This document shows positions 25,491 to 53,469 of a stretch of 64,000 nt of DNA, piece by piece. The stretch comes from a virus (Duplodnaviria; Caudoviricetes), in the IMG/VR virus record IMGVR_UViG_3300029928_000003, one strand, 5' to 3'. Position numbers and translations under genes: made by a program. The notes below the pieces were generated by a model. It made no database searches. It saw only the letters and a program-made list of their open reading frames with translations, and was not told the origin of the DNA. Every line of letters begins with the position of its first letter. The stretch's first letter is position 1.

Positions 25491-25538
25491 AATAAGGGGA
25501 AGAATAGCTGCTATAGCTATCCTTCCCCTTATTTTTTT
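25491..25538. terminator. Bidirectional terminator between convergent early and late arms
   Basis: AATAAGGGGAAGAATAGC / GCTATCCTTCCCCTTATT stem with a T-tract on the + side. Confidence 0.85.
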
Positions 25539-28500
25539 ACTATTGTGATTTATTATATGCGTTTCTAGTGTCTTGAAAAGCCCTGAGTACAGCAACATTA
25601 TTATTAATTAGGTCACTTACTGATCGTTTGCCAGCAATTACTCCTAGAGTCTATTTAATAAGTTTAAGATTCTATGAATAAATAGGAGGATTAGTGTTTT
25701 CACCTAAGAATTGAAATACATTAAATACCCCTTTAAAACCATCATAAGATCTAGATGATGATTTATATACTAATTCGACAGTAGCATTAGTAAGTACATC
25801 TCTATTTTTCATATCCTTCTTAAAGTTTCTATAAGAAGGATCAATTGCGCATCCATAAAGAATAGAGAATATTAAAAATGCTAGTAGATCAGAACCTAAC
25901 TTTAATAGATTTCTTCTTTGTACAGGGTCTACCCATATTTCTGATTTAAAATCTCCGTTGTTTAATGCCCTTAAAGTATCTTTTAATGTATAATATATTC
26001 CTTGGATTACTATAGGAACTCTATGCATTAGAGGTTTAATATGAGTTAAATTCTCTGTAGCCTATTTAACAGTACCATCATAGAAATATTTAATAGTACC
26101 GTCTTCACTCTTATATTGTACAATAACTTGACCTGTATCATCTAAGAATTTTAAATTACCTGCACTATCCCTATCCTAGACTAATTCAGAAGAGCCGTTA
26201 GTATATTGCCCTGGTTTCATCATATAATTAGCATAAATACCATTCATCCAAGTAGAATACATACCAAAGAATGTTCCTAATGCCATATGTTCATACGCAG
26301 CACGAGTACTTCTATCATAAGCACCGTATATACTATTAGCCACATTTTTCATTTCTTCTACTTCTTGTAATGAATAAGGCATGGGCAAATTATCCGTATA
26401 ATTAAGAGTTGCATCAGGATGCTCTCTATTATAAGCTCTTATAGCATTGTAATAAGCTCCTTGCTAATTATAATATTCTTTATTACTAGTATCTCCTGAA
26501 GCGTAGATTGAGAATCTTTTGTCTTTTTTCCAATCATATACTAATTCACCATCTTTAATATCGAATGCATCATATACGCCATCTTCATAACATTTAGCTA
26601 CAAATAATGTCATACGATTTAAGAAATCTGGCCTACGTAATGTAGCATATGCCCAATTTCCTATATTTGATATACCTCTACCAGATTTTAAACCTTCAGA
26701 AATTCTAGATATATCAATATTAGAAAGACGGTAAATCTAACATAATTGATTTACTATATTAATTGATCTACCATCTGTAAAAGAATTCTTAATTACTGTT
26801 TTATATGCCTTCATTAATGATTTAGCACTAATATCTGTTTGGTAATGATTAATAGTCCTCATTGTATTTTGCCAGCATCCTTCAAAAGTATCACGTAACA
26901 TACTAGTTATATTACCAGCAATTAAAGTATTGCTAACCATTCTTTTTAATGGCGTAAGAAATCCTAGAATCTTTTGAGAAGTCTTTTCCATAACAGACAT
27001 ATGGAACATGTTGACTTTAACAAAGTCATCAATCATTGATATAGTTTGCTTAATAATTTTCTCTTTATTTGGTACAGATGCTAAAGCATTAAGTTGAAAT
27101 AAAACTCCTTTTATAGTAACTAAAGCTTTATTATATTCTTTAGTTTCTATATCTCGTTCGATATAGTCAGCTAATAATACTTCCAAATTAGTTTCAAAGT
27201 AATCAGCACCATGAGCCGCAATATAATTATTTCTTTCTTTAGAGTCCCCTCTTTGAAATGAGTTTTGTAATTGCCTTGCCCTCCAAGACTAATCTCTTAA
27301 CTCTTGGTCCTCTGGGCTAGTTACATTCTATACAAATTCATCAAAAGCTTGTTTTGGGTTTCTTAATAATGCAGTAGCAGATTCTTTTATATATTCTAGC
27401 TTTTTAGATAAAGGGTATATAGTTCTTCTAGTACTTATTGATGCTTTCTCTAACGGAATTTGAAAATAGGTGTCTCCATGTTTCTTTATAAATTCCTATA
27501 GTTTAGGATCATCTGCAGATGTAAAATCAAACTAAATTCCCTAATTTGGATATTTGATTTTTGCAAACTCAAATAAAATTCGTTTAAGAAATTGCTATTT
27601 GGCATTCTTTTTACCATCATTCTTTATTTGGGCCATTTCATTGGGATTATAGGGATTTAATAATTCTAATGTATTATTTCCTTGTGAATCTCTTTTATAA
27701 AGATCTTGAAACTATTTAGCCTAATTACCTAAAATACTATTCTACAATCTAGAATATCCTATTTCATCATAGAATGTTTTAAAAAATGATCTAATAGGAA
27801 TCCATTTCTATACCGCTTTTTCTGCAATAGTATTTAATGCTCTATTATATAAGTCTGTAATAATACGAAAATTGCTATTAGGTACTCTACTGCTGACAAA
27901 TACATTTTTATCAATAGAACTAAGGGCTTGCACATTAGGGTTAATTTCACCTACATCATAATAAGTAATAGCTTTTAATACATCTGCATAAAGTAAAGCT
28001 ATTTTTTTAGTTGCTTTACTTTTTAATGATGCTTCTAAGTTATTAGTAATTGCAGGATAATTTTCTTCCATAGTTTTCTGAATACTTCTAAGCGCAGTTA
28101 ATCTTGCTTCTACTGTTTTAGCATCTTGTAACTCCCCAAAACCAGTATCTAATAATTCCTAGGTTTCTGCTTTTAATAGAGTAGAGTCCGCAATAGTATC
28201 TTTATAATCTTGCACTAATGTTTCAAACTAATCTACATATTTAAATCCTATAAAATTATTATGAATGTTTACAGTTTTTATTTGATTTACTTCTTGTATA
28301 ATTTTAGAAAAACATTCTTTATTTAGAGTTTCCATATTATAAATAGAACTCTATCCCCTTCCCTATAGAGATACTACTTTTAAAGAACCTAATAATTTAT
28401 CTCCAGATATTTTAGGAAGTACTCTATTGAGTAAAGTCATAGCTCTTACAGCTTCAATAGTACCCATATTAGACTTATAGTTTACTAGAGAACCTGATTT

Positions 28501-30105
28501 AGTATCATACAGTCTACTTCCTAATATATTAGTACCTCTTTTAAAACGAATCATAGCATCTAAATCCATACCGCTTAATATTACAGTATTAATCTATCCA
28601 GAAGCTTTATTTTTAAAGAGTAGTATATTAGCAGACAATAATACATCATTATCTATTAATTCCCAACCAGAGGGAGTATCTTTATTTATTGCAAAATAGG
28701 GACTAAATACTTTATGCAAATAAAGACCTGTTTTGGAATATGCTTTATTAGATAAGAAATTACTTGTTCCATCAGTTAAACCTGCTTTAACATCTTTAAC
28801 GACCCTCTTTAATACTATATCATTTTCAGGAGATAATTTTTCAGAATGCTCCTCTAATATCTCTATAATTTCTTTATTCTTTTCAGGAACAGTTCTATCT
28901 TCTATGTTATATATATGATCTTCGTCTATATATAAGATATATCCATATTTAGGATCAGTACTTTCTTTAATATTTCCTCTATTCTTTTTAATCCACTCTT
29001 GTGCAGATATCTATATACCAGAAGCTTGTATATCTCTTTCTGGAAATATTGCTTGTAAATCTTTAGAAGCGTTATCTAAGTCTTCATCAGATAATTTATC
29101 AGTATCCACATGTGCCGGAATAAAGTAGCTTGCTGCATCATCATATTTTTTAAAAACATATCTATCATTTATTACAGTAAGTTCTTCTGGTTTCTATACT
29201 GAAATGGAATCAATAGCAGATAAATCATCATTATATACCATACGAACTGGTATAATATGTAAAGTAGCATTATTTACTGATATGCCGTGGGCGGCTAACA
29301 TCTATTTAAGTAAGGCCATTTGATATCTATATTTTTCCATTTTTACAGAACCCATATTAATTCCGCTAGTAGTTACTTTATAATTATATATATGTAAATC
29401 ACCATCGGCATCTACTATACACATATCAATATGCCCAAATATATCTTTAGGCATATCTCTTAATTTAGCAGTTAAATTAACATTAAAAAATGCTTGGGAC
29501 GATCTACCACTATTTTTCTTTTTAATGCCTGAGAATATACTAATTTTAGTATTATCTATTTCTGTTTTTAAAGCATTAGAAACATTCTTAAATTTGGTAT
29601 CCTTTAACTATTTATTAAATTCATAGGTACTTGTTTTATCATCTATCTTACTAATTATTGTATGTAGCTAAGTGGCATCTGCGGCTATCATATCCCAATT
29701 ATCTACTTCAAGAGTGGCCTTTCTTTTACCTTCTTCTAAAGTGGGGCTTACCCCATCTTTAACAAACTACGCTGCTTTATGTTCTATATATCCATCTCTA
29801 CTTAAAGATGTTATATGAGTTTTTTCATAAAAAACAGGGGTATCTATTAATTCCTAAGAGCTTATACAACCTTTACTTGTCCAATATGGTTCACCATCGT
29901 CATACGCCATCTTATTATGAGATTTTACTGGGATAGCTTGTAAGTTGGCTATTGCAGATGCAATTTTTTCCTACTTCTAATTTGCTTTACTAAAGATAAT
30001 ATCTGATTCATTTTCATAATTTATGATATGATCATCTTTAATAGCTCTTACGAGATCCTAATAGCTTTTGTAAGCAGTTCCTTTATAAGTATATGTACAA
30101 TTCAT
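25537..30105 (-). CDS. Large virion/cargo protein (~1522 aa, TAG=Gln) with degenerate RecB-like PD-(D/E)xK domain
   Basis: ORF fragments 25672-28569 share one frame and end at TAG; start MNCTYTYK (ATGA overlap), stop TAA; GHID...IYNYK...YRYQMALL. Confidence 0.8.
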
Positions 30106-32417
30106 TTACATTCCTCCTATATAATATTATCGTTCTTCATTTTCTCGATCACATTAGAAATCTATCGATATACTCTACCTTTTTTAAATTCTAATCCGTT
30201 TTTATAATTAGCGACTGCAGACATAAATCCTTTACATACATCATAAATAGTTCCTTTATAGATAGTGTTTATATCATCTCCATTCATACCTTCAAATACT
30301 TTAGATAAAGCTTTATCTGTATTATTTTTGGTCTATTTCATTGCATCTGTCAGTTCTTCGCTTAATAAATCGGTACGTTTACCAGCTAAATAATCCCCGA
30401 ATAAAGTAGCGAAAACTTCTTCCTATATATCCATTTCAGATCTTCCTTTATATTTAGCTCTTACTTCTTCTTGTACTTTACCAACCCATTTATCTTTTTT
30501 TATACTAGCTATGGTATTTAATAACTTAACATAACCATCAAAATTAGATGCTTTTAACACTCCTAATAATAAGTGGGTATATTCATGAAATACGTCAGCT
30601 GAAGTGGCAGTATCTTGGTTTATATATACTTTGCCGTCTTTAATAAAAGCCCTAGTGTCTTCATCAACTCCCATATCCTTTGCTTCGCTATTAGTAATTA
30701 ATTCTATTTCCAGTCCTTCGTAAGTATCTTGCAATACTTTTATAGCCGTATTTAAATGTCCTATAATGGGCATAGGCCTTTGGGTTGCCGCATCTAAACT
30801 TACCCCAATATCTGTTATAGGTTCTAACTATAACATCTTATTTCCCTACTTAACTACATAATAATAGTTATAACCATGAACATCAGTTTTAGCATTAGAT
30901 AATTCTTCTAAAATACCTTTTATTAGATTATCTTCTAATTCTTCACCATAGTATTTATTAACTTGATTTTCAGTAGTATTACGTTTTTGTTTATCGTATA
31001 ATTTATAGATAAATAATCCCGCTAATTCAGGAGAATCTATTACTTCTTTTAATTTATCAAAAGTCTCAGATAGAACTCCACGCTCACTGAAATAGGTATA
31101 AAAATCTTCTAAAGTCCCGTTAGTTAATAGGCTATTATATTCCTAATCTATTGAGTCGTACTTTGTAAGGATAGTTTTATATTTCTTAAAAGTAGATTTG
31201 GCTGGATATAAGAAACTATTTTTTTGTAAGTATAATTTAAAAGGAGTATTAGCTTCATAATAAAATTCAGGAGAAAATACAGATAATTTTTTATCATACT
31301 GCTTACTGTCTATTCTCTATTTAAGTTCTTCTATAGAAGAGTAACTTTTAGCTGAAGTGTTAGGACTTAATAAGCCTTGGCTGTAATAATATTTAGGAGA
31401 TTCTTTAGACTATACATCTTTATAAATTATAAATCCTTTATATACTTCTTGCGGTACTAAGAATTTATCAATAGTATCATAAGTATAATTCTAAGTTTCA
31501 GATAAGGTAAATGAATTATTTTTGAAATATATAGTTGGAGACCCGCTAGAATTAAAATATATTGAAGAAAATTCTAATTTTAAAGGGGAATCTTTAATTT
31601 TATTAATTAATTCTTTGGCCGCCTATGTAAGCGTTTCTTCATCATTAGCTATTGTCTTAACTTCTAATAAAGCAGCTAATTCTTTTTTAGTTAAAGATAC
31701 AATATTGTTAGGATACTTCTATAAGAATGAATAAGTCTATGCAGCTAAAGGATTTTCAAAAGTTAATGCATTATCATTCTATAATTTTCTGCAAATTCCG
31801 TCTAATAAACCATATAAACCCTCATTAGATAGCTATGTTTTATAATGTGAATTGTTCTCTAAGAAATCTAATAAAACATCTGTCTAAGTCTTAGGGGTAC
31901 TATCATCAGATAATTTTATTTTATCTAATAAGTTAGCTAATCTTTCATTACCTTGAAATTTAGTTTTAACCAAATCTTTAGTTTTTAAGAAGGTGGCAAA
32001 CTATCTCATAGCGTAATTATTGTTTCTGACTATATAAGTACGTCTGCCCTAACTATCTTTATAAATCATATCTTTAACAGATGCTCCTTGAACTGCTAAA
32101 TTATTTACTAATAAAATACTTGGATTCTCTTTAAATTCGTAAGTACTTAAAGATCCCGGTAATAAAATTTTTATATTTTGGAAATTAGTGTTTCCAACTA
32201 TACCCTAGTCTTTTATAGTTTCTGCGGTAATAGGTTCATTTGTACTTTCTAAAGTTAATACCGCCTTGGATAGCTATTCCTATATTCTACTGTTCTATAT
32301 AAGAACTTTAGCAATTGAATCTACTGAAAGTTCTTCTAAATTTAAGGAAGTAGGGAGACGATCAATATCAATCGCCTCCGACTTTCCTTGTATATCAAAA
32401 GTTATTATACATCCCAT
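30102..32417 (-). CDS. Zincin-like metallopeptidase-domain cargo protein (~771 aa, TAG=Gln)
   Basis: Start MGCIITF (TAATG overlap), stop TGA; KVYIN...FHEYTH...EEVFA. Confidence 0.8.
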
Positions 32418-35400
32418 TAACAATCATATTTTAATAATATCTAACCTCTATTCATATAAGTATATAATGCTTCTGCAACTTCTTGTGCATTTTTAGATGC
32501 TAGTAATGTTCTTTTTATTTCATCCTTCGCATAGAAAGGCATTTTATAAGGAGCATAATCTATAAAAGCTTGATAAGCAGCTAAGTATCCTAATGGATTT
32601 TTTGCCCTATCAGTACTATTTACTAAAGTAATAGCCCCGTTATATTTACCATAAGATCTTCTTTTAATTATTCTCTAGCCATGTTCTATTTCTATAACCA
32701 TAGGAAATGTAGTACTATTTTCAGCTAATTTAGAAATAGTAGGTGCAATTCTATATAACGCATCATTAGTTGTATATCCAAATAATTTTAAATCATCAAT
32801 ATTTTCAATCTAATCATTTGGATCTGCGTTATAATCAAATTTACCTGTAGTTCTTAATATCTAAGTAATTGCAGAATCATCTTCAATCATATCAATAAAT
32901 TCGTTAAATATGGTAGTCATGCGATCTGAACCATATTGATTTTTATTTACCATATAATTGTAAAGCATAAACCAATCACTTAATGGTATTCCATTTAAAG
33001 TATATGATCTAAGTTTTAATAAATCGGTTAAACAATCCTGATATAATTTAGAATTACTTGGAGTAGTATCAATATTCTACATATCTAAGTTTAATCTTAT
33101 AAATGGTGACGAATCGTTCTAAAAATCTATGATAAGATTATCAATGAAAGCATTATGGCCGATCTATTTTTCAACCATTTCAGGATGCCCATTTTCATCA
33201 AGCACTAATTTACCATCTTCTGTCTTAACATCTTTATACGATCCAGATTGTAACTAAGGGAGAATCTATTCTTCCATTACTTTTTTAAATATTGCTCTAT
33301 GAGCTTCGATATCTAGTGATAATAATTCTGGGTATTCTTCTTTATAAGTACTAGGATAGAAATTTTTATCAAGTATATTGTAACCTGTAAATATGGGAAG
33401 TTGATAGTTTCCTTTTTTAAAAAATCTCAGACCTATTAAATCATCTGCATATCTACTTAAATTTTTAATCTAAGATTCATCTATTGTAGTATTAGGATAT
33501 TTATCATAAATATCTGCTAACATTAAACGGAGCATCTTAAATTTCTTTATATTAGTTTCAAACATACTAATTGCGACACTTAGGTTTTTCCATATTGCAT
33601 TATAATGTGGAAGTTTATCTGCAATGTCAAATATGTTCCAAGTATTTTTAATTAAATTATAAAAGTCTGATACGGCTTTTCTATAACCTGGTTCATTTTT
33701 TGCCCATCTAGCAAAATCAAATCGTTTTATAATATCAAAATCTTCTGCAGTTTGTACTATCTAAGTTACTACATCAGTATCTTCTCCAGAATATTCAGCT
33801 ATTATCTGTATAAACTTTTTAGCTTTTATGGGATTTTTATTAAAATCTAATAACCCCAAATCAGTCATTCTTCTCATTATAATCTTATTAAGATTATATA
33901 ATTTATAGAGTAGACTTTCTGGTTTAACCGCTATTCCCTGATTAAAACTTAATATGCTACTACCTAATGTACTTGTTTCTCCTGCTTGTTTATCTATTTC
34001 TTCAAATTCATATAAATCTTTAAAGAAATCTTCTCTACTTTCTTTAGGAATTAAACTCTTTACATATTCGATATTGTCACTAAGATTAAGTAATCCCCTA
34101 ATAGATGCATTATCTTGGTTATTAGAACTTAGATATTCAGACAATGGCATAATATCCTCACCAGATTTCCAAGTTTCCCAATAATCGAATAGTAAATCTT
34201 GTAATTTATAATAACCTTTGGGCTTCATTATAGGTTTGCCGTTCTTATCTTTTTTGGAACTAGGTTCTTCTCCTATAGGTAATGTGTGTAAGAAATCTTT
34301 TAATTTCTATAATTTACTTGTAGCAGAATTTGCTGCAGATATAGTTCTACCAGTTTCATAATCAGTAACAGTACCTGGTAAAAAATTATCTACCTAAAAA
34401 ATACCTTTTAATGTATTTACTGCTTGCCATACTTTACTTTCATAGTTATATTCATCATACATATTTCCTTTAGATAAATTAACTATAGCCTGTACGGCTG
34501 GGCTAGTCATAAAAGCTACAATGTCTTTCATATCGAAGCCCATCATTATTAAATGAATATAATCTTTAGCAAGATCTGTATTACAATTAATTTTTGCTAA
34601 TATAAGCTCTTTAGCATTCAATTTTATTATTCTTATATTTTCATATAAGTTTAGACTATATCTTAATTCAATATATTTGAATTCTCAGCACTTCGGATTT
34701 CTAAATCCTATTTTATTAAAATAGTCGTTGCACCATTGTATGGCTCAGAGATTACCCCAACCTTAAATCTTGTTACTATAGTAAGGTAATTATTCTTACA
34801 AGTAATTTAAGTTTTTAACAGGGCTTTTCCTGAATTCACTGAGTATTTTTATCCCACTGACTCTGCTTTTAAAGTGCCAAATATTTTTTTTACAGTGTTT
34901 TAAATCAGTGGCAGCTGATAACAGCTAAGAAATTAAGTCGTCTGCATATATTTCAGATCTATATGAATCTATTAAAGCATCATATTCCTTTTTATATGCA
35001 ATATAATTTGGGTCTTGATCTGAAATAGTTTTTAAACTTTCATTAGAAAGATTATATTTAAATAATAATCCCTACTATTTATAACCTAATTCAGTAATAG
35101 AAGCTAGTGCTTTTTCGCATCCTTCAAAATTAATATTTGCAATATGATCTACTGTTTTTGGTACTATATTTTTAGAATACCTACCCTATATTCTTGTATA
35201 AGTATGGCTAAATTTCATATTGTTTAACCATGTAGGATTATTTCTACGTAAACCTTCATTACAATACCAACTAACATTAAAGAATACTTTTTCACCTACT
35301 GCCGCAATACCAATAACCTATTTACCTACCATATTTTCTTCCTACATTCTAAATTTAGAAAGAGGATTAAATAATGATATTTTAAACGCAGCCGAACCAA

Positions 35401-38400
35401 GAGGGCTAGTATTAGCGGCTTCACGCATAATATCCATATTTACTGGAGAGTATGCCATATCCATATTTCTTGGATCTTGTATAATATCCTAAATATTATA
35501 GGATACTATATTACGTAGCACAGCTTCTAAATCTGATTGATTTATATTTGTAAGACTATGTATATTTAAATCGTTTAAGACACTATTTCCATCTACAGTA
35601 TCATCCCAAGTTACATAAGTAGTTAAACGCTTTGTTTTCTAATCGTAACTAATTTTATTATCTAACTAAACTAATAAATCAGCTTCTAATCTAAGCCTTT
35701 GTGCTTTGTTGATAGCTGATTCAATAGCTCTAATATTATCTGTAATATCAATTCCAGTATCCGCTTTCACAAAAGTAGCTCCTGTAGGTAATGGTAATCT
35801 CTGAGAGGCTCTTAATGTTTCAGGGGATGAGTAATCAAATAAATTACTCCATCCTATATATTTACCATTATCATCAAATTCTTGACCCATTATGTATGCT
35901 TTATCAATATCCGATTTATCTCATGTCTTTCAACACAAGTCCGACTATATCATCATTATATTAAAATATAATGTCTCGCACTTCGGAACCTGACTCTTGA
36001 AGTTTTATAAATTCTTCCTTAGTTAAATCTTTTCTTATCTTATAGAGAAAAGATGGAACCTGTTCTATGTATGGCTTTATTATTTTAATAAATTTTTCGC
36101 AGTCTAACTCAGAACTAGAAGCTATAGAGTATGTATTCCTACCCTCTTTAAAGGGTCTAAAATGTATACCCCATACTTCGTCGAAATAATTTATTATAGT
36201 TTTAATAGTACTATCATCAACACATGTTGCTATTTTAATAGTGTGTTGAATAGAACTTCTTTGTTTTGACGTATTAACATTAATACATCCATCATCCATA
36301 TACCAGATAGCTAATCCTAGAGGATTTAACCATTCTAATAGTTTTCTAGTAATAGTTTTCTTTGGAGTATAAACAGACCTACGTAATGCTTTTATTGTAG
36401 GAGTAAGTGACATTTGAGAATACAAAACACTTTTCCCAGTATTATATCCACATTTTGATATATATTCTTTTACTCCATTATTCTTGATTCCGTACTTGTT
36501 TAATAATCCCACTTTCCATTCCAAGTATTCTCTTTGTAATGGGGAATGAGAAAGCTTAAATACATAATTACTAGATATTGTCCCATCTCCTATCAATAGA
36601 GCTATTAATAAGCTCTTTTGTTCTTTACTAAGTCGAATAAATTTTCTTTTTGTCATATTTCGTTTAATAAAATTAGTTTTACTTAAACGAAAGTTCCTAC
36701 TCCCTTTCGGGATAGTCTGTGAACCTTCATCCTTATAAATATATAGATAATTTTGTCAACTGACAAGTCTTTTCTAAAAATATTTATCTAGGACGCTTGG
36801 CTGCGGATTGTCCAATCCTACATGCTTTTTACTATGTCAGCAATAGTTAGTTACTGCCTTTAGATGTATTCCTACTCTAAATTAGTACATATAGGCTCTA
36901 AGAAGTTCTCCGCAATTCACGAGATTTAAAGACTACAACTCTGTTTATAGTCTGAACCCTATAACCACGTCTAAAAATGGCTAACATAAGCTACATTTTT
37001 TTCACTTTCTGATAAAGCTACTAATTTCATCTACATAAACGATTGCAGGGTCTGTGCTGGAATACGAGAAGATATAAAGTATATTGAATTAGCAAAAGAT
37101 GAATATAATTCCTAAGCAAAAATATTATAATAGTCTACTAAGATATTATTATACTACTTAGCATACTCTGGATCTAACATAGTTTTCTTCTCTTGAAATG
37201 CCTTATCATATAAATTAATAATATTATTAAGGCAAGTCTTAAGAGTATTATTTACTTTTATATTAGGAATAATATCTTTTAATTGATTAAAAGTGCTTTC
37301 ACGTAAGTTAGTATTAAATCTAATTCCATTATAACTATCTATGTTATATAAATCAGAAATGATATTACTTATTCTTTTATCAATGTCTTTTTTAAATATA
37401 TTCTATACTTCTTTATTATTGATATTACCATTTGTATAATATCCAGCTTCTATAGAATCCCTATTAATAGAATAGACTGTAAAAGGTATTAATTCTTTAT
37501 TTTTACCTTGTTCAGTTATTTTATATTTTGATATATGTTCAAAGTACTTTCCTACCTTATCTCCATCTATTATCTTTAATCCCTAATCTTTAATATCTTT
37601 GTCTGTTAATATTTCTCCTTTACTATTCTTTATATTATTACCTTCTACAGAATAATTCTATAACCAGCTATAATGACCTACTTTTAGTAATTCTTGACGA
37701 TTTTTATCTAGGGCAATTACATCCCAACGTTGTCTTTGCGAGTCATATTCTAATTTAGTGCGCTTCCATCCTACATATTTAGGTGCTTTTGGGTCTAAGT
37801 TATTTACTTTAGGTCTAGTTAAAGTAATATATGTATTTCTACCATTATTCTTACTTAAAATAATATCGTACTTATCTGAATTAATCTAAGTAATTCTTCG
37901 GACTTTAAATACGTTTGGATTATCTAAGGCTTCAGCTAATGATTTATTTCCTAAATTAAATTTAGAAGCATATAGATTGGACATTACTAATTCGGCGGCT
38001 TCGTTTGTTAAATTGGTAATTTTATATCCTTTATAAATACCTTTAGCTAAGCCGTCAAATACTCTCTATACAGCTTTTCTATCCTTAGTATCTGTTAAGA
38101 AAGTATTTCGTACTTCTTCTGTATCAAATATATTAGTAAAGTGAGTATTTCCTTCATTATCCTAATACTCCCAACTAATCCTTGCTGGAGCTAAGTCTCT
38201 TGCTCTAGTAACATTCATAGCATATTCTATATTACCTACAATAGGCTATATAGTATCTGTTAATGTTCCATTTTTAGCAGCAATTCTTCCAGCTAAGAAC
38301 ATTCTTATATTAGCATCCCTTTCTTGTTCAGTAGGGTTTGGATTCGATTTGTTATAACCTTTGAATTGATAATAAGTATCAAGAGTATCTAAATTAATGG

Positions 38401-41400: not shown

Positions 41401-43897
41401 TAAGTACTAAATCATTAACTTTAGTAAACAATAGCGGAGTAGTAGCTTGCCCTTTTTCAACTTTCTCAGAATCTCTATATTTATTAATGTAATAATTTAA
41501 ATTACCTCCTAAATAAGAAGTTCTATTATTAGCAATAGCGTTATTATTAATATCCTTAGTAGTACTTCTAGAAATACTGCCAGTTAATATAGCTCTTGCT
41601 TCATTAAGATTATCGATCCACGCCGAACTCTAACCAAGTAAATAGATATCTGGAATACCTACTGCATTAGATCTAAATACCCCTTTAGGAATTCTATCAC
41701 TTTTAGGGAATCCGTATGAATTTAAGGCAGTAACTTTTTTACTTATATAATCTTTAAATTTTAATTTATCCCCAGAATATTCTGGATGAGTATTAAAATC
41801 ACTATATATTTTATCAATGGCTGTGGCTCTAACAGCATCAATAAGCATAGCATTAAGGAATGTACCCTATTGTGTATATCCTTGTTTATATAAGTATAAT
41901 GTATTTAAACCATTTTCAGAATAAAGATCCTAGTGTAGATAATCATCTAAGAATTGTAAAGTATTAACAAATAACTACTTTGCAACATCATTCTATGTAG
42001 GATTAAGTAAATCTTTTACATTTTCTATAGTACCTAAATCAATATCTTTAAACGCATCATTAAGTACCTTATTTAGATTAGCTTCAGTACTTCTATAAGA
42101 TTTATTATTAACTATAAATCGTAAAGTGCCGCTTCTATTAGTTGCTAATTGTTCCCCTGAAACATTTACTGCTATCTATACTTTAAGTGCTTGCCTATTT
42201 CCATTAGGATCCGTATATACTGTATTTAATAAAGTTACTGCTGCAGTACGGTTCTAATCACGTAATGTAACTTTGTATTTATTTAAACGTTTTTCTCTTG
42301 TTTCTTGTAAATCCCTAATTAGTCTAGTATTAATATTATTTATTACAGTGTATAAAGACTTAGTATCTGTATATTTCTTTTTAATAGATACTTGCTACAT
42401 ATTAGTAGCTGAACTGTATATAGACTATAAATAACTTGCTTCCATAGTTCTATCAGCTACTCCAGCAAGTACATTTAATTTAGGATAAGCAGTTCCAGAT
42501 AACCCTTTTTCTGTTATGTCTACTACATCAATTTTACCTAATTCTATAGCATATTTAGCAATAGAATAAAGAGTGTCTATATAATTTTGAGGAATACCCG
42601 CTTTTTTTGCAGCTTCCTAAAAGTTACTATTTATTTTATTACCTTGTATATCGTATATTGCCAAACACAACTATCTCATATAGTATGTTGGATTACTATG
42701 AAAGTTTAAGATTATCCTCTGTAAAGCTGGCCAAGAGTTAAATGAACTAGAAGTAAAAGCTTTCTAGAATAGTATAGAAAAAGCATTAGTAAAGTCATTC
42801 ATAGAACAGTTTTTACCTCGATAACCTGTTTCTGTGTATATCTTAATATCTGTGACAAGCAATTTAGAATATCTAGATATATCTTTTAATGCATCTCTAT
42901 TTTCTGAATTTAAATGATCTTTATGTTTATGGTCTGTTCCTATATAGAAATTATATTTTAAATAGTCTCTATCAACCTCACTTCCTTCAGTCCCTTTTAT
43001 AGGTCTGATAATATTATCGGTCATCTACTTTAAGCAATCATCAAAATATACTAAAGAAACATAAGAATTTAACGCCTAATAAAATAAGTCTGTATTTCCT
43101 GATATAGTCTTATACCAGCCGTTAGTTATTTTACTATCAAGTTCTCCTTTTTCTTTATATTCTGATAATAAATTAAAGAACTTATTAAGAGGAATAATAT
43201 ACTTAGAGTCTAGTTTTCCTTTAGTATTAAATACTCTTTTAGTCTCTGGGGTATAATTTTCATCTATTGATTGTAAATACTGAATAATATTATTGTAATA
43301 AGCATTCTTTAAGTTACATATAGAAATATTTAACTCTTCTGGAGTGCTAATACTTACATTATTCTTAGTGTCTACTATACATCTATGTAAAATTTCTCTA
43401 CCAAACTCATCTCTTCTAAATTTAGCTGCTTTTATATTAGTCCCATAAAACCCCTCTTCTATTTCTTGCAACTTCATAGCAGTACGAGTTTGTTCATTTG
43501 GCATATCTTCAGATCCTTCGATAGAAGGAGAATCAGGTTCCGTAACCTAAGTTACGGAAACCTTACCCTCTGCAATTTCTCCAAGATTTTTAGTTACTAA
43601 TTCTTTAAGATTAGCTTTCATAGTATCAGGTACTCCTTGCTATTCATCTATTCCCTAATTAATAAAATCTATTAGATCATATACAGACTTTTTAAAATCA
43701 GGATTATTAGTATCTTCTAAATTCCATTCGGCGTCTATTTTATCTTTGATAATCTTATCATATATTTCCTAAGCATTATCAGTACTTTTTGATCTTCTTT
43801 TTAAAGTTCTAAGTAATCTATCTCTAGTTTGAATATTTTTCTTATATGTATCTGAATTCTATTCTGCTTTTTTAAATAAATTTAATATACAACTCAT
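32417..43897 (-). CDS. Single-chain virion RNA polymerase (~3386 aa, TAG=Gln); exons 43897-36947, 35911-34904, 34618-32417
   Basis: All fragments in one frame; RIPAQ, GSDY|DIDK catalytic DxDxD, SAATD|NAKE restored on splicing. Confidence 0.88.
34619..34903 (-). mobile_element. ORF-less group I intron (285 nt) in RNAP gene
   Basis: GAT|TTAAAAC...AATTG|AAT GCT AAA; core elements GAATTCAGGAAAA, AATCTCTGAGCC, GGTGCAACGACTA, AAGATATAGTCTA. Confidence 0.88.
35912..36946 (-). mobile_element. Group I intron (1035 nt) in RNAP catalytic motif
   Basis: GAC TAT|AAACAG...AATCG|GAT ATT GAT AAA; GGTTCACAGACTA and GATATAGTCGG core elements. Confidence 0.88.
35961..36656 (-). CDS. Intron-encoded LAGLIDADG homing endonuclease
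   Basis: LLIALLIGDG and LAIWYMDDG motifs; intact 231-aa ORF. Confidence 0.9.
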   Translation of the reverse strand: MTKRKFIRLSKEQKSLLIALLIGDGTISSNYVFKLSHSPLQREYLEWKVGLLNKYGIKNNGVKEYISKCGYNTGKSVLYSQMSLTPTIKALRRSVYTPKKTITRKLLEWLNPLGLAIWYMDDGCINVNTSKQRSSIQHTIKIATCVDDSTIKTIINYFDEVWGIHFRPFKEGRNTYSIASSSELDCEKFIKIIKPYIEQVPSFLYKIRKDLTKEEFIKLQESGSEVRDIIF

Positions 43898-43902
43898 TTT
43901 AA

Positions 43903-46900
43903 TTAGTATTTACATGATGTTTTATTATCACTTACTTCTTTTAATAGTATGTCCATAGAATTTGATAAAGCTTCGTAATCATCCGCTATTTGCTCATTAT
44001 TTTCAATTCCTTCAGAAATAGCTTCTATAGCTTTATATAAAGAGTCTTTATCTGTAAGTGCCACCCCATTTCCTAAATGATCTTCTACTAACTGTTCTAC
44101 AAACTGTTTATCTTCCTAATTAGTCATACTATCCATAATCTGCTACATCCTATTCTTAATATAATTTAAATCTGGAACCTACGGTATATTTTCATTAATA
44201 ACAGGTTCTAATTCAATAAACTCATCATAATCTACAGAAGAATCCATATTAATACTTAAAACATTGTTATTAATAACTATATTATTATCAGAATCTACAT
44301 AAACACTATTTTGGTCTGTTGGATCTATTTTTTGACCTATTCTTTCTTCTAAATATTCCTATAACGTAATAGGAGCCTTCTCCCCATAAGTATACTTTAT
44401 AGGCATACTTAATAGTTTGTTAATATCTAAAGCCGAAGAAGCTTGCTATGATAAACTACGTTTTAAATTATTATTTATTTTTTCTTCCACATAATGCTCT
44501 CTTTCTTGCAAATTTTCTATTTTTCCAGCTTCTTCCTAAATAGAATTTAAAGCTGCCCCTAAATTAAGATTCTATAAAATTTGTGGGACTTGATAAGTCT
44601 AAATAGACTCTTGTGGTTCCTTTAACTATTCTTCTTGTTTTGGAGTTTGTAAATCTTCTTTTAATTTACCAAAATTTACGTAGAAAATAGGCATGTCAGT
44701 TTCTACATTTATTAAAAATAATCTAGGATCATTCAGACAGCCTTTTAATACCGCACTACCATTTACATCAATTATTAAACTACTGCCTATAGGGTCAGTA
44801 AACATACCATGTTTAAAGTAAGCATCCGTGGCTCTTAAGCCGTCTGTTTCAACATCCTCTGTAGTGCCATGGAATGCTAGAGCTAATGTTCTATCAAAGT
44901 CATAAGCTGGTTTAAAGTTATGCCCTGGCCCACCTATTGGGAATGTATCTAATATTTTATCAGAATTTACTTCTAATTTATTACCATCTTTATCTATAAA
45001 TTGGATCTTATCCCAATCTTCATAAGGCCCTTCTTCTAAACCTACTTTCTTAGATATTTTATAAAGTACTTTAGCTAATAATACTGGAAATCTCTTCATT
45101 CCAGTATCGTCCCCTAATTTAATAGTAGCTTTATTTATACCATCATCTACCTCAATATCTGCACCGCTCATTACTAAACTAACTGGACTTGTCTTTTTAA
45201 ATCCAAGTGAATTATCATCGTTAGTATTCATAGAGATAATACGATCATGTTCAAATGGTTTGCCAGTTTTACTGTAGATGGGTTCTCCTACTACTTGTTT
45301 AATAGGCCCTTCAAATAACTAATCTATTCTATTTAAATATTCTGCTGCAGTAGCCGGTTCTATATAAATACCTACTGGTGTTTCTCCTTTCTCTATATAT
45401 TTTTTATAGAATGGGTTATCCTATTTTATATTAGTTAAATATCCTAAATAAACACCTGTATCATTAACGGCTCCTCCTAAACGGAATTGTCTAACTTCTG
45501 TACTTAATCTATCATTAAATTTATCAATAAGATCACCTATTTCATTATAGCCTCTTTTAATTTCCTCTGAGGTAGAACTTATAATAGAATTTACATTATC
45601 TACTTCTTTCTATGAGACTTTATTTCCGTTATTAATTCTATCCTGCAGATTCTATTGTAAATAAAGTGCATTTTTGTATCGTAATATCTGAGTTATGTAA
45701 TTATCTTGCTCCTCATCAGTCTAAAATACAGATGTAAGTTTTTTAGTAGCCTCTTCTTTAAAGTTAGAATAAGCATCGCTAAATCTAAGCAAATTTGCAC
45801 GGAAATTCCATAAAGATCTATACATACGAATGCCTGCGGCGTCTGTTTCAAATGGAAATATATCTGTAACTTTTTTATCTTTAATGATTTGAGTTATTCT
45901 AGTGAAACTATCTTTTTTAGCCCATATTAAATCATGGAATGATATACCTCTATTCCATAAGGGAATCATTCTAACCCTTGGGGTCATTTCTCTCTAAAAG
46001 ACATTTACATCATTTTGAGCTTGGCTCTGTTTTTCTTTTATATATTCATCAACTAGTTCATCCTTTTTAAGTGTTGTATCATTAGATACAAATACTACCG
46101 CGTTTCCTCCCCAATCGCTAAGTGTTTTAATATCATTACGAGTAACAATATAAGGATCAGAAATTACAGTATATGGATGAGATTGTGCATATTCTTGTAA
46201 GTTTCTAATTGGAACTCTTCTTTCTTTATAATCTGACGTATATGTATATCTACGTATTGCAGTTAATCCAGAGAATTGTGGGGTAACATCTATTTCAAAT
46301 GTTCCATTATTATCATTAGCTTTCTAAGTTAACTATTTAAATATATTTTCATAGTTTTCTTTATTGTTTGCAAATGCTTTTTGATCATCTTCGGATAGTT
46401 TGCCAATATCTCTAATTTTATAACTTTCAGGATTCGCTAAACCACCTAGAGTAACTCTACAAATTTCTCCATTTTTATTTTTAAATTCAGCTACTACAGA
46501 ATATACGTAACCGTCTATAGATAATAATTCTTTTTTCAATCCAGTAAAACCATAGAAATTATCTGTTTCGTTCTATGGTCTAACTACTATTTTATATTGA
46601 ATTCCTTTTTGGAATGTATCTTCATCAATAATATCCTTTATACTTTTACTGAGTAATTCATAATCTCTTGCAGTTCTTCCATGATATAAAAGTACTGATT
46701 TAAAATTTAACATTGCTGAAGCGTATGCATTTTTATCTTCAGGGCTTTCAATAGTCTTATCAGGTTCAAGAAGCATTTGCATATCAGACTTGGGGCCGCC
46801 AGCCCAAGTATTTCTCCAGCGTTCTATTTTATTTTTACCTTTACCTTCTTCTTCCACAGCTAATCCAGTAAGATGTACTGATCCATATATTCTAATTGGA

Positions 46901-49900
46901 GTTTTAGATTTATCTAATAGTAAATTATTATTTATTTTAATATCGTCGTCTTCTGAAGCCCCAACTGACTATCCTACTATTTCTACGGCTTGCTCATTAT
47001 TTTCAATTATTGTGTTCTTATCAAGCGAATCATCTATAATAGGAACTTCTTCTGATTCAGGATTTGTTTGTTCGGGTTCAGGATTTATAGTACTTTTTGT
47101 AGCATTATTCTACGTAGGTTCTGGATTCTGCTGTGTTTCACTAGATATAGGTGATTCTGGATTCTAAGTAGTAGGTGGCTATGTATTTGGATTTTGTTGC
47201 TGTGTGGTCTACTAAGATGAAGCTTGCGGTTCTGGATTCTAAGTAGCCTATTGAGTAGTTTCCTACTCAGTAGGCTTTTGTGGCTACTTAGTAGTGGTTT
47301 CTCCTTTTAATAATTTATCAAAATCCTCATTAGAAATTAATCCCAACTAGTCAAGTAAAGCCTTCTTGGCTTTAATGAAGGGGTCTAAAGCGTTCTTTAA
47401 ATTAGGGGCTATTGCTTTAATTCTAGAAATAGTATTCTAACCTATATAGTTACTTAACCCATTATCTATAAATATAGAACCAGATTTACCTCGACTCATT
47501 AGTGTATATAAAGTAGATAACTAATTTAATTGATCATAAAGATCTGTTGGTACTTTCCATTTCGTATCTACTACAATATAATCAAACTCCTACCCCTATA
47601 TTTCTTTTGTAGAGGCAACTAACAATGTGCTATCCTTTGCTAAATTATTTTTTAACGTATTATATGCAGCCCCGTTAGTATCTCCTACAAAAGCTATAGT
47701 ACCATGTAATTTAGCAACTTGTTTAGCATCTATTGTTGGGGTAATTAAATCACCATTAAGTACATCTTCATTATAAACTGCAAATCTTAAATCAGGAATA
47801 TTTTTTACAATCTTTTCTGCTTTATTGTTTCCCTATGGATCATTATCTGATATAGCATTTAACTATTTTAATAGATTAGAAACCTTAGTTAAATTCTAAC
47901 TTTTTTGTAAGTTAACATCCCTTAAAGATATAGATAAATAAGAGGATCTTATTGTAAAGGCTCGGTCAAAATCAATATTACAAATACCTATATTACTTCT
48001 AAATCCCTATTGCATAGTATCTCCTAAAGCAACTACTGTTATGTTATGTTTTTTAGCAAACCAATTAATTATCTATAATTCTGGAACGCTAAAATGAGTT
48101 ATCTCATCAATAATAATTAATTTAGGAGCATTTTTTGGATCTGCTAATTTTACAGATGCTTTTAATTTTGAAATATCCCTATCTAAAGTAGTAAGTGTGG
48201 CTTTAGCTGCATCTGTTTCTAATTCAGATATAAGTTTTTCATAGGTGTTAGAGTCTATAAATTGTAGCATAAAATCTCTACGTGTTTTAGCTACTCCTTT
48301 TCCTATAATATTCTTAAGATTTTTAAGCTAGTCTTCTTTAGGGGCGGATAACCATATATCATCAGATGCTATATATCGTGAAGCATTTTTGGCAATTACT
48401 GTTGTTTTACCTGCTCCTGCACCCCCCTAAATAAATACAAAGTTACTTAAAATTGCTTTCGGGTTTTTCCCTTTAGGATCGACTACTTTTAATGCATAGT
48501 TAATAAAACCATTAAATATTTTTGGGTTTTTAATATGAGCTAAAGCTAGTCTAGATGATTGCTCTTGAATAGTAAGAGGAACTGTTACTTTATTTTCATC
48601 CTTAGATTTAGCAGAATCTTCTATATTAGATTTTACAAAGTTACCCATTTCATTAGAACTTATTCCTGAAATAGTAGCTAAGTAGATTAACTTATCATAT
48701 TCCGTAAGTTTTCCGTAACTAATATGGTCATCAAGATCCGCGGTAGACTATTCTAAAATTTTACTTAAATCTAATAATGTTTCTAACATCTTAGATTCAT
48801 TCAAAATTTCTTCAATAGTTATCCCACTATTTAATGCCTTATGCAGATTTATATAGAAAAGATTTTCTATTTTATGTAATTTAACTGCTGGATTATCATC
48901 TACTATCTTTTCAATTCCATCTAATAAATCAAAATGTATACCTTTAATAGTAAATCTTACAGCATCTCTATTAGCTTTAATAATATCAAAAAAGTCTAAC
49001 TTAGCCTTTACATATTTCTAATCAGCGACAAGTAACTTTCTTGTTTTATTTACCTAATTAATAGCCGATAAAGACGCCCAAGACATTGGGCTTTCAGGAT
49101 CTATTTCATCTAAAAATCTTTCAATTTCTAACATATACATGTTAGCTATATCTTGAGGTAATGTAGGAAGTTCTTTAAAATCGGGATTTTCTTTGGGATG
49201 ATTTTTAGCAAAATCATTCATTACTTTATTATGTCCTGCTGGAAATGCAATACCCTGATCAACTCCAGCTGCATATAAGTAAGCTCTTACTAATTTAAGA
49301 ATTTTGGAAGCTTCTTCTAAATCTTCTAATTCAGAATCAGTAAGTACAAAGTCTTCTACATTCTTCGATTTTAAGAATTTCTAATGAATTTTATCTAATA
49401 GTGATTCAATATTACCAGTATAATTTATACTTGAAGCAAACTTTTTAACTAAATCTATTATAGGATTATCAGTGTCTATTTTAGCGCGTATTTCATTAAA
49501 TAATGATACAACTGGATCATTTTGTATTTCCTGTCTTAATGAACCTAACTATCTATTGGCTTCTTCTATAATAGGTCGTCTAATAGCTTCTAATATACTG
49601 TTCTTTGTATCTTCATCAATACTTCCAATATAGTCTCCTTCTTTACTAGCTAATTTAGCTAAAATATTAGGATCAGCATTTTCGTTATATCCTAAAAATC
49701 CATCTAGTAAATTTTTAGTATTATTGACATCCCCAGTATATTCAAGTATTTTCTATTCTAGTAGTTTTCTAGCTTCTTTTGGGTCTGTACCTTTAGTAAT
49801 TAAATCTTTATAGTACTAAATATATTCAGGAACCAGATGGCCTACATCTGCATTTACTTTTTTTGAATCTGCGGTAGCACTGACAGTTAATCCAGAAAAG

Positions 49901-52900
49901 ACTTCTTGTAAACTGGCTAGCTATGATCTGTCTGCTTCATTAGCATTTGCAGAGGAATTAGCTATTATAATGTTAGCTATATTAGAAGCTAATTTTCTTA
50001 AGTCATTAGTGTGAATATTATATTTTCCTAAATGTCTAAATTCTGGAAAAATATCACTAAAATGCTTTCCACTATTAGGGTCACCATTAAATAATCCAGC
50101 TAAATTATGGTTATATTGAGTAGTAGTTCCTATTTTTTTATTAGTCCCATAAAAGCTATCATAGGGTTTTACTACTATATCTTCAATATAATTCTCTATG
50201 GCTTGTCTTATTTCATCTACATTAGATAAATCAGGTTTTAAATCTTTAAATATACCATATAAATCTTTTTCAAAACCTACAGAATTCTACTATAATTGTT
50301 TAACTGCAGATTCAATTATAGATTTAGCAGAATCATTTTCTCTTACTCTTAATACAGCATGCAATCTTCGTAAGAAAGCCGGATCTACATAATCTCCTGC
50401 TGTGTCAACTAAGTCTAATATACCGTCTCTTAACTTATACCAGGATTCTTTATTAAGATCTGCAATTTTATCTAATCTTTTTCTTTTTCTATTAAGAAAA
50501 TCTGCATCAGATTCTTTTTCTAATTTCTTATCTCTATTTTCAAAATCTTCTTCAGATTCGTCTGGAAGTTTTTCATCATAAGAATAAGATTTAGCATTAG
50601 CAATAGGCCCGTCTTGCGCAAATACTTTAGCTAAAGCTTCTGAATTATACTTAAACAATAAAGCATTATCTTGTAAAGTTTTAATATGTGGGTTTACTTT
50701 CTCTGCAATAGCTTTATATAAATCAAAAGCTTCATCTAAATCTAAACTCTATTTAGATTTCTTATAATTTAAATATTCAGTTTTATAAGCACGTTTTTCA
50801 GCTTCCGTTAATTTATCTATTGTTTTACCTTTATTAGCTTTAATCCACTATTCATAGGTCATAGAGGTAAACTCGCTATTAAGATAAGAGTCTATTGCAA
50901 ACAACATCTTATCAGTATATTTCATAGAATATTCTCCACTAAGAAATTTATCTCTTTCTTTTTTCAGAGATTCTATTTTATCTTCTAATACTTTTATATT
51001 TTCAAGTCTAGTTGGGTTATTCTTAACTTCAGAACTTACAGCATCGGGTAATTTTTCTCCTTTTACTGTACCATCTTTAGTACCATAAGCAATTTTTAAA
51101 TCTTGTTCTGCATTAAGTAACTTCTTAGTCATTTCTCGGAAATCTTGATGATATCTAGTAGAATATGCTACATCTTTTAACAGGGCTTTCATATTAATGA
51201 ATCGCTATTCTTTAGCAACCATCTATTCAAATAACTAATCATCACTTAAATCTGTCCCATTAGTTGATAAAATATCCTGTATCTATAGTACAGATTTTTT
51301 TAATGTGTTATAAACATAATCATTCTAAGAATCACCTTTATCTGCCGTTAAATATACAGGATTTCCATCTGATCCATATTCATAATTAGAAGCAGATATA
51401 TTTTTATTTCCTAATTTACCTTTATCGTGCCACTTATCCAATTCAGATAATACTTCATTAGTTTTTCCATTGGCAATGAGATAGATAAGTTCATCCTATG
51501 TAGTATCTCTATGAAATGGTACTTGGCCATTTGCAACGCTAACCCCATAAAATAAACCACCACCAAGACCGCCGCCAAGAAGGGACATTAAATATCTTTC
51601 CTACCAGTTTTCCCATGCTCCTACATCAGTAATTCCTGAATTATTTAAGAAGTTAGGAGAAAATTCACCTGCCAACTAATAAAGTTGTTTAGATAAGTCG
51701 GTTACAACTTCTTCAGTAACTTCTTCTAAACCCTCACCAAGAGCCTTACCAAAAACACCAGTTGTATGGTTTTTAATATCATCTGCATATTTAGATATAA
51801 ATCCTTTACCGAAATCTATTCCTTTTTGAATTAGTTTAAATTTACTTTCTTTTGTTGCAGGACTATTTATACCTATTTGCGTAAGATCTGTAGCTATAGA
51901 TTCTGATTCTTTCTTTATTGCACTTCGTACAGCTACCTTAGTTTCTTGACTTAATTCATCAAAGAACATTTCGCCTAAATGCATATACTTATCTACTGCA
52001 AACATACCTAAAGTGCTACCGAATGCTACTTTAGCAGCGTCTTCTTTAGATGCACCGTGTTCAAGCATAGTTTGATATACATCCGTATTAGAAATAATAG
52101 CCATATATGCTAAAGACGCATCAGCTCCAAGTCTAGCATTTTTCTAAGCTAACTCTTTAGCTGGTTCTACAAACTTACGTAACGCAGCTCTTCCTAATGC
52201 ACTATTTTGCCAATCCTTAGGATTGCCTACATATTGTATTGGGGCCATTCCTTCAATTTTACCCATCTTAGCTGCTTCTTGTGCATCTTTTAATATACGC
52301 TAACTTTGTATTGTATAATAAGCCTCTGCGTCCTTATACGCGTTTGCCACTGCTGACTACGAACCTTTTAATTTATTAATAGAATTAGCAATTCCTTTTT
52401 GCTGTCCCCATTGAGTAGCCACATCTGCAATTAATGACGCAATATTTTCAAACGCAAAAGTATGCTCCTTAGCGTAATCGGAAGTTCCACTTGTTAACTA
52501 TTGTCCTACAGCAGCAATAGTATTTAATAAAGTAGAATCCTAATCATTCCCCCATAATGTAGAAACCATTCCATAAAGCATAGGTAATGATTTACCCATT
52601 TCTCTTGCAATTAATGCCCCACTATATATTGTAGATATAGGACCACCTAGTAAGAGTGGTGCTACGGATAAGGCCATTTTAGCTACAGTACCAGTTGCCG
52701 ATTTATCTAGATCATCAGAATCTAAAAAATCATATTTATTAATACCTTCACCGTCTATCGTAAGTATATCTGTAGCTGATAATACATCTTTACCTACTAA
52801 AGATCTACCATTTAAAGTTTCATAATAATATTGTCCTTCATCGTTTAATTTTAAATCACCTTTATTATGATGCTCCATTTGACCCGTTATAGGATTAGGG

Positions 52901-53469
52901 CTATCACCTTCCTCATCCCAAGTAGCTTTTACTAAAGGGTCTGAGAATAATTGTTTAGCCCATCCTATAGGATTAGATGTTAGAGAAATATCATTAGGAG
53001 AATAATCTTCCCATTTCTATTCTGCGGTATTCCATATTTTAGACTACTGTGCCATTTCGCTTCTAGAAAGAGGACTGGTGGTTTTTTGATTTCTACCTGC
53101 TATACCAGTAGCCATTCTATCTGGATTAGATATTACTTCTAATTTAAATCCAGAATCTTTTATCCGTGATTTAGCAGTTCTATTTGCATCAAATAAACTA
53201 TATTCAAAATTATCTATTGCTGGCGTATCTTCATTAAAAGTTTGAAACTAATCTAATGATTTAGTATAAAAATCTTTAAATTTAGTTTCATTGAAAGTAC
53301 CGTCTGCATTCTTAAAATTTTCATTTTGAGTAATGAATGGACTAGAAGTATATGCTGAATATGGTAATAGCTAAGTGTTGTCCATATTCATATCTAGTAC
53401 ATCTTTAAAATCCTAATTAGAAAAATCAGGATTATTTATTGTTGCTACAATCCAATCGTTTTCTCTCAT
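43903..53469 (-). CDS. Giant virion/cargo protein (~3188 aa, TAG=Gln) containing an SF1 helicase-like P-loop domain
   Basis: Fragments 44626-52878 share one frame; start MRENDW, stop TAA; GGAGAGKT, IIIDE, GDTMQ, QGQEFD, YTLMSR. Confidence 0.8.
47040..47300 (-). repeat. Low-complexity Pro/Gln/Thr linker with repeated NPE(P) units
   Basis: Recurrent TCTGGATTCT on the + strand; translation QNPEPQ...QNPES...QNPEPT...NPEPE. Confidence 0.6.

Follow-up and report, generated by a model that had tools for sequence, protein, structure and literature searches.

Staggered terminal cysteines in the virion RNA polymerase module of crAss-like phages and a possible disulfide tether between successive proteins

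The DNA analysed here is a 64,000-nucleotide stretch of a Caudoviricetes genome (IMG/VR record IMGVR_UViG_3300029928_000003; hereafter the window). The co-directional block 53469-25537 on its minus strand encodes four proteins, named G, R, Z and L in gene order, once the codon TAG is translated as glutamine. The four proteins are best explained as the virion-packaged RNA polymerase module of a crAss-like phage. A cysteine near the C-terminus of each of the first three proteins faces a cysteine near the N-terminus of the protein that follows, and the two free ends of the series carry none. This rule is conserved among crAss-like phages, and the positions of the cysteines depend on where the protein chains are broken. 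The favoured explanation, to which a probability of about 0.5 is assigned, is that each C-terminal cysteine would form an inter-chain disulfide with the N-terminal cysteine of the next protein, so that G, R, Z and L would be tethered into a pseudo-polyprotein.

The first protein of the block, G (43903-53469, minus strand), has 3188 residues, begins with MREND and ends with TSCKY. It contains a superfamily 1 helicase-like P-loop domain, and residues 1672-1821 match the Pfam families AAA_30 and AAA_19. Protein R, encoded by three exons between positions 43897 and 32417, has 3386 residues in its spliced form. Z (30102-32417, minus strand) is a protein of 771 residues that begins with MGC, ends with EECK and contains a zincin-type HEYTH motif. 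The last protein of the chain, L (25537-30105, minus strand), has 1522 residues, from MNC to KSQQ. Together the four proteins amount to 8867 residues, or approximately 975 kDa.

The cysteine of G is the third residue from its C-terminus (codon 43914-43912), and its N-terminus has none. R has a cysteine at position 3 (codon 43891-43889) and another as its last residue (codon 32422-32420). Z has Cys3 (codon 32411-32409) and Cys770 (codon 30110-30108), and L has Cys3 (codon 30099-30097) and a cysteine-free C-terminal end. Retranslation with TAG as glutamine reproduced the termini that the initial annotation had read (TSCKY for G, MSC and KYDC for R, MGC and EECK for Z, and MNC for L). The start codons within the window are forced by adjoining or overlapping stop codons: each ATG of the chain overlaps the preceding stop or is positioned 0-5 nucleotides from it (TAATG, ATGA), and an in-frame stop is located 0-2 codons upstream.

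Cysteine is otherwise scarce in these proteins. The chain G-R-Z-L contains 30 cysteines in 8867 residues (0.34%), whereas the cysteine content of the early genes of the window is 1.91%. The depletion of internal cysteines is about five-fold, with 0.27-0.34% in chain proteins compared with 1.3-1.9% in other genes. The probability that cysteines would occur by chance within five-residue segments at all six termini is approximately 1e-10 at the frequency of the chain itself, and below 1e-6 even at a frequency of 1.9%. Among 234 other open reading frames (ORFs) of 120-699 residues from the same and related loci, cysteines are found at positions 2-5 in 3.4% and within the last nine residues in 9.0%.

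The terminal cysteines are retained throughout the protein families to which G, R, Z and L belong. All 42 members of the G family have a cysteine within the last four residues, and none of the 42 has one at the N-terminus. The Z family was counted in 122 full-length representatives that are at most 50% identical to each other, for which the chance expectation is approximately 1.5% per terminus. An N-terminal cysteine is present in 118 of them, at position 3 in 81 and at position 4 in 27, and all 122 have a cysteine within the last four residues; 24 of the representatives contain no other cysteine. An alignment of 44 diverse Z homologues has C3, C770, H611, E612 and H615 (the HExxH motif), N600, Y629, E666 and E667 as its sole invariant positions. 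The two terminal cysteines of Z are thus as invariant as the HExxH motif. N-terminal cysteines occur in 82 of 83 L-family proteins, the exception being a truncated fragment, and C3 and Y5 are invariant; C-terminal cysteines are absent from all 83. The C-terminal cysteine of R is invariant in 13 aligned relatives. The absence of cysteines from the two free ends of the series, which the initial annotation had reported for the window, therefore holds for the G and L families as well.

The arrangement of terminal cysteines was read in 23 genomes: the window, a 76%-identical relative (L001), MT835470, MT835492, ten IMG/VR genomes, crAss001, IAS virus, phi14:2, LMMB, crAss002, FPSV-D25, cr50_1, cr7_1 and cr10_1. 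The stagger is present in 23 of 23, with a C-terminal cysteine only in the first protein, cysteines at both ends of the middle ones, and an N-terminal cysteine only in the last. Consequently, the number of N-terminal cysteines equals the number of C-terminal ones in every genome, and both are one less than the number of proteins. The ten IMG/VR genomes obey the rule at all three junctions and both free ends. So do MT835470 (standard code) and MT835492 (TAG read as glutamine), despite being only about 28% identical. A search for related loci with a single Z sequence found no match, and the alignment of Z was required as the query. The tabulation of terminal cysteines across homologues that the initial annotation had proposed thus shows them conserved at each junction and absent from both free ends.

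The rule extends to modules that consist of three proteins or fewer. Phage phi14:2 encodes gp67 (1797 residues, with a cysteine at position 1797 only), gp66 (2180 residues, with cysteines at positions 3 and 2179 only) and gp65 (1421 residues, with a cysteine at position 3 only); these 5398 residues contain four cysteines in all, every one of them terminal. Phage crAss001 has gp47 (2341 residues, Cys2339 only), gp50 (2412 residues, Cys5, Cys1334 and Cys2404) and gp49 (1349 residues, Cys5 only), and IAS virus shows the same pattern as crAss001. LMMB, which is p-crAssphage-like, has a protein of 1957 residues that ends with SFSCM and one of 4070 residues that starts with MSC and lacks a C-terminal cysteine. 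The lone cysteine of crAss002 gp32 is at position 2019 of 2020. In the gene for crAss002 gp33 (MN917146, L040 17088-17190), an internal ATG after an AT-rich leader gives the N-terminus MSCTPSN, which fits the rule found in all relatives, and the true start is therefore probably 32 codons downstream of the annotated one. Phages cr50_1, cr7_1 and cr10_1 of the Suoliviridae encode a giant protein of 4460-5443 residues with a cysteine at its end, followed by a protein that begins with MQC, MFC or MKIIC. Flavobacterium phage FPSV-D25 (MW448540, L043 1802-19881) has a protein of 4419 residues with a crAss-type polymerase core and one cysteine, at position 4418; the next protein begins with MAC. FPSV-D25 is classed as Fipvunavirus, outside Crassvirales, indicating that the terminal-cysteine rule extends past the formal order. 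Phage N4 served as a negative control, and its gp50 (3500 residues), gp51 and gp52 are all free of cysteine.

The cysteines follow the chain breaks when genes are split or fused. Protein G of MT835492 is divided into two proteins of 1540 and 1555 residues, encoded in two overlapping frames, and the new junction has the sequence EACKVIA followed by MQSNC. The split corresponds to residues 1505-1530 of G from the window, a segment that is free of cysteine in seven of eight unsplit homologues. The opposite situation is represented most cleanly by FPSV-D25, the fused G and R of which contain no internal cysteine. The G and R fusions of Suoliviridae and the fusions of R with a gp65-like protein in Intestiviridae have no cysteine pair common to relatives near the likely fusion point, as judged from listed positions with the junctions unaligned; in LMMB, Cys2220 is close to the expected fusion point. 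The fused forms in cr50_1, cr7_1 and cr10_1, in LMMB and crAss002 of the Intestiviridae, and in FPSV-D25 have the same domains in the same order as the window. They differ in having a peptide bond in place of the Cys-Cys junction and fewer chains, hence fewer cysteine pairs.

The gene for crAss001 gp47 is located on the strand opposite to those for gp50 and gp49, and the rule is kept nonetheless. Retention of the cysteines by genes that are neither adjacent nor on the same strand indicates selection on protein rather than DNA. Genomes with different gene splits, to which the initial annotation had pointed as informative, thus bear out its prediction: a cysteine pair is gained where G is split in MT835492, and the pair persists without gene adjacency in crAss001. 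These sequence comparisons strongly support C-terminus-to-N-terminus pairing of successive proteins, considered at the protein level. The initial annotation had gone further and proposed a complete head-to-tail chain for ordered ejection, an interpretation that is partly supported.

From the comparisons we infer that the terminal cysteines pair, that the bond between them is a disulfide, and that it has a role in packaging or ejection. According to this proposal, the cysteine near each C-terminus would bond to Cys3 of the following protein, and the disulfide would be formed in the particle. The four separately translated proteins would become one linear thread, G-R-Z-L, of 8867 residues and about 975 kDa. 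As the links would be a few residues from the chain ends, the thread would have roughly the thickness of one unfolded chain. It could be packed at a fixed stoichiometry of 1:1:1:1 and drawn through the tail channel, and reduction of the links in the host cytoplasm would release the parts. The predicted structure of Z, with a mean predicted local distance difference test score of 74.6, has Cys3 as the first residue of a beta-hairpin, and Cys770 on a low-confidence, disordered tail past the last helix. An alignment of relatives gives the C-terminus of R the same layout as the tail of Z: a helix is followed by an alternating hydrophobic strand and then by the cysteine. Docking of a tail onto a hairpin, which would align both thiols, is plausible. 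A complex prediction for the C-terminal part of Z and the N-terminal part of L, performed with database proteins, had a score of 0.28 (mark 0.32) and counts neither way.

A disulfide is favoured for several reasons. Internal cysteines are depleted, as expected if unfolding proteins must avoid forming wrong disulfides. The virions of crAss001 contain structural disulfides elsewhere, and gp47, gp49 and gp50 were detected in them (PMC10172136); the module proteins of phi14:2 were likewise detected in virions (bioRxiv 10.1101/2020.03.07.982082). In evolution, a peptide bond and the junction replace one another freely. Finally, links close to the chain ends would keep the thread narrow enough for the tail channel, the constrictions of which in crAss001 are less than 50 Å wide and force partial unfolding (PMC10172136). 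That the proteins of the window are themselves present in virions and injected is presumed by analogy with the crAss001 and phi14:2 literature. A broader form of the proposal is more tentative, and it is somewhat more probable that it fails than that it holds: the phage would inject one disulfide-concatenated thread of about 8,900 residues, cytoplasmic reduction would be the switch that frees the polymerase, and crAss-like phages in general would use the arrangement, which would be evolutionarily interchangeable with gene fusion.

Several observations weigh against a disulfide-linked thread. The support for any link consists of comparative sequence data throughout. The cytoplasm in which the particles assemble is reducing and the gut lumen is anoxic, which raises the question of the time and place of disulfide formation, and the disulfides of crAss001 were observed in particles purified in air (PMC10172136). 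Recombinant gp66 of phi14:2 is active by itself in dithiothreitol (bioRxiv 10.1101/2020.03.07.982082), indicating that the link is unneeded for catalysis and would serve packaging or delivery. The offset of the cysteines varies, from positions 3-8 at the N-terminus and from 0 to 10 residues before the C-terminus. A shared metal site would be equally compatible with the near-invariant acidic residue or asparagine next to the cysteine, as in ExC of Z and [DN]C of R.

This last point leads to a different explanation, considered unlikely, in which the junction cysteines do pair across proteins, with their thiols reduced, through a shared zinc or iron ion or through non-covalent docking of strands. 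It fits the reducing environment of assembly, the conserved acidic and asparagine flanks (E768-x-C770 in Z, [DN]-C at the end of R, and C-D or C-T at the start of Z) and the strand-like surroundings of the cysteines, namely the hairpin predicted from Cys3 of Z and the alternating hydrophobic strand after the helix at the end of R. However, two thiols alone would make a weak metal site, the depletion of internal cysteines fits the specificity required of disulfides and not metal binding, and the G/R junction shows little conservation in the residues that flank its cysteines. It is slightly less likely still that the terminal cysteines never meet. Each would then bind another part of the virion, such as the portal, a chaperone or the inside of the capsid, or would serve as a signal for packaging or redox state. 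Lone cysteines near C-termini with no N-terminal cysteine facing them do exist, in the 861-residue protein of LMMB (Cys860; L039 5576-8161) and in crAss002 gp30 (Cys550 of 557; L040 6393-8066), and the muzzle ("stabilization") proteins of LMMB and crAss002 have a cysteine approximately eight residues from the end. Furthermore, tail proteins of crAss001 are disulfide-linked to one another (PMC10172136). The lone cysteines of these tail and cargo proteins of LMMB and crAss002 may represent further, different disulfide contacts. Binding to other partners leaves unexplained the cysteine-free N-termini of G and C-termini of L, the simultaneous gain of two cysteines at a split, and the equal numbers of N- and C-terminal cysteines in every genome read. 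Pairing of the two ends of the same molecule is ruled out by the end proteins, which carry a single terminal cysteine.

The cysteine codons could also be a nucleotide signal at the gene junctions, for translational coupling or re-initiation, or they could reflect chance or wrongly assigned starts; the probability of any of these is negligible. All six codons in the window are TGT and are positioned at most 15 nucleotides from overlapping or adjoining stop and start codons. Nevertheless, a nucleotide signal is effectively refuted by crAss001, in which gp47 and gp50 are encoded on opposite strands; moreover, the junction cysteines are encoded by TGT in 79 and TGC in 7 of 86 cases, and their spacing to the stop and start codons is variable. 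Wrong starts are opposed by in-frame stops 0-8 codons upstream, which fix the starts, and by the conservation of the N-terminal residues in more than 100 homologues, and the low chance expectation per terminus speaks against coincidence.

The gene for R is interrupted twice. The ORFs 43897-36926, 35890-34796 and 34621-32417 are parts of a single gene, and joining segments 43897-36947, 35911-34904 and 34618-32417 gives a single open frame of 3386 residues from MSC to KYDC. The initial annotation was correct about the two ends of the polymerase and its membership in the series; it was mistaken in treating it as one ORF. Exon 1 (36947-43897, minus strand) ends with WLQGSDY, within the catalytic DxDxD motif. 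Intron-less homologues continue uninterrupted through SHWQTWLQGSDYDIDKAYIMG and read GSDYDIDKAY, and the first break in the window occurs after GSDY; DIDKAY resumes 21 nucleotides upstream of the ATG of the reading frame that starts with MGQEF. Exon 2 (34904-35911, minus strand) starts with DIDKAYIMGQEF, ends with SAATD, and is colinear with the uninterrupted exon of 1063 residues in L001. L001 is continuous at the site of the second break, which separates SAATD from NAKELIL, and exon 3 (32417-34618, minus strand) completes the protein.

Intron 1 (35912-36946, minus strand) is 1035 nucleotides long and probably of group I type. It carries an ORF of 231 residues (36656-35961), residues 15-180 of which match Pfam LAGLIDADG_2 (PF03161) with 82.4 bits (cut-off 25), and which also matches PHROG 11023. 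Intron 2 (34619-34903, minus strand) is 285 nucleotides long, probably of group I type and without an ORF. At the borders of both introns, T ends the 5' exon and G ends the intron, and removal of the introns restores the reading frame exactly. Intron 2 matches Rfam RF00028 over the full length of the model with 48.3 bits (E 1.6e-11), just under the gathering score of 50. For intron 1, the L001 copy gave two partial matches to RF00028, of 35.2 bits (E 2e-7) and 21.9 bits. These matches came from short-range scans, and an Rfam scan of the entire 32-kb block detected no intron. On these scores both interruptions are probable group I introns, a classification with which the splice borders and the LAGLIDADG reading frame agree. 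L001 retains intron 1 with a 34-residue endonuclease remnant and lacks intron 2. The end QSCSL of the 2323-residue ORF that terminates at 36926 was considered as a fourth C-terminal cysteine and rejected, as it is intron read-through and absent from L001. Broken RNA polymerase genes, interrupted within DxDxD, and LAGLIDADG intron endonucleases were noted in Zeta-group crAss-like phages by Yutin et al. 2021 (PMC7886860), and interruption of the polymerase gene by introns is thus already known. In two IMG/VR relatives (L010 4203-5315 and L015 4777-5835), the break in the polymerase gene follows SHWQTW, a few codons before the position of intron 1, and the insert there encodes a cysteine-rich ORF of 352-370 residues with 8-9 cysteines; seven other relatives are insert-free. 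A different mobile element has probably entered at almost the same site as intron 1.

The catalytic DxDxD loop found in two-barrel RNA polymerases is restored in R by splicing (GSDY|DIDKAY). In a profile-profile comparison with hhalign, the core of the R family matches that of phi14:2 gp66, crAss001 gp50, LMMB and crAss002 at RIPxQ...GSD[FY]DIDK, with a probability of 87% and an E value of 3.7e-6, and on the basis of this match R is identified as a crAss-type polymerase. Searches of Protein Data Bank (PDB) chains with the R core, by phmmer and with a profile, gave no match, and tblastn of R on phage records retrieved two distant records only.

Translation table 11 fragments the long minus-strand ORFs, which require TAG as glutamine to stay open and contain 13-70 TAG codons per gene. 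The late block on the minus strand (25537-64000) contains 3-70 in-frame TAG codons per gene, compared with 0-2 in the plus-strand genes (1-25486). The LAGLIDADG ORF within intron 1 of R has none. Database proteins with glutamine at the TAG sites of the window exist. ARAGORN found no tRNA genes in the window, and the suppressor tRNA must therefore be encoded outside it. The phage is probably a large-genome, intron-rich, TAG-recoded crAss-like phage of the Zeta type.

Z is a putative protein of the zincin metalloprotease type, given its invariant HExxH motif and E666/E667; it has no match in Pfam or PHROG, and a Foldseek search of its model against the PDB gave no significant hit. Z homologues of 1100-1600 residues were considered as fusions of R and Z and set aside; they are longer variants of Z and uninformative. 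The alignment of L has an invariant GHID...K-type motif at residues ~224-255. A match to PF12705 (PD-(D/E)XK nuclease) is precomputed for the most distant L homologues (P0232-P0234), and a Pfam search with L of the window itself gave no match at E 0.01. Thus, L may be a nuclease-like cargo protein. In L001, the strand opposite to L encodes a thioredoxin-family protein (18120-18389) a few kb downstream.

The closest known counterparts of the module in the window are gp67-gp66-gp65 of phi14:2 and gp47-gp50-gp49 of crAss001. In all three phages the giant proteins are encoded after tail and cargo genes, the middle protein (R, gp66 or gp50) contains the GSD[FY]DIDK loop, and the terminal cysteines are staggered according to the same rule. 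The window differs in having four chain proteins instead of three, with Z and L separate and an R of 3386 residues, in the reading of TAG as glutamine, and in the interruption of R by two probable group I introns. BLASTP comparison of the chain proteins with the modules of phi14:2 and crAss001 found no similarity at E 1e-4. Three-way fusions of the module proteins occur in some phages (bioRxiv 10.1101/2020.03.07.982082), indicating that covalent union of these proteins is tolerated. Cleavage of the fused forms was proposed in the same work. The cysteine rule suggests the opposite, that the separate forms become joined.

A giant virion RNA polymerase is likewise expelled with ejection proteins by N4 of the Schitoviridae, whose gp50 accompanies gp51 and gp52 (PMC13434306). 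The N4 polymerase is of an unrelated type, and the lack of cysteine in gp50, gp51 and gp52 means that no such tether is possible in N4. A conceptual likeness, and one in concept only, exists to AB toxins such as diphtheria toxin and the clostridial neurotoxins, in which one disulfide holds two chains together through membrane translocation and cytosolic reduction frees the active part. The chains of AB toxins come from the nicking of one polypeptide, and the disulfide is located away from the chain termini. In crAss-like phages, by contrast, the tether would connect the ends of independently encoded proteins, up to five in a row.

Cargo and ejection proteins of phages and the gene fusions of the module are already known; the new feature would be the conserved terminal-cysteine tether. 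Terminal cysteines are not mentioned in the crAss001 atlas (PMC10172136), the phi14:2 polymerase paper (bioRxiv 10.1101/2020.03.07.982082) or the survey PMC7886860, and a full-text search on crAss-like phages combined with cysteine or disulfide found no description of a tether. The model of packing and delivery in the crAss001 structure paper is presented as hypothetical only (PMC10172136).

The terminal-cysteine rule provides a practical check on the annotation of true gene starts and ends in recoded, intron-ridden genomes, as exemplified by crAss002 gp33. No phages are more abundant in the human gut than Crassvirales. The way in which they package and deliver approximately 1 MDa of protein, among it the polymerase with which infection begins, is an open question that a tether would address. 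If true, it would explain why the proteins are packed at a fixed stoichiometry, the order of their ejection, the free fusing and splitting of the module genes, and the near absence of cysteine from the module proteins.

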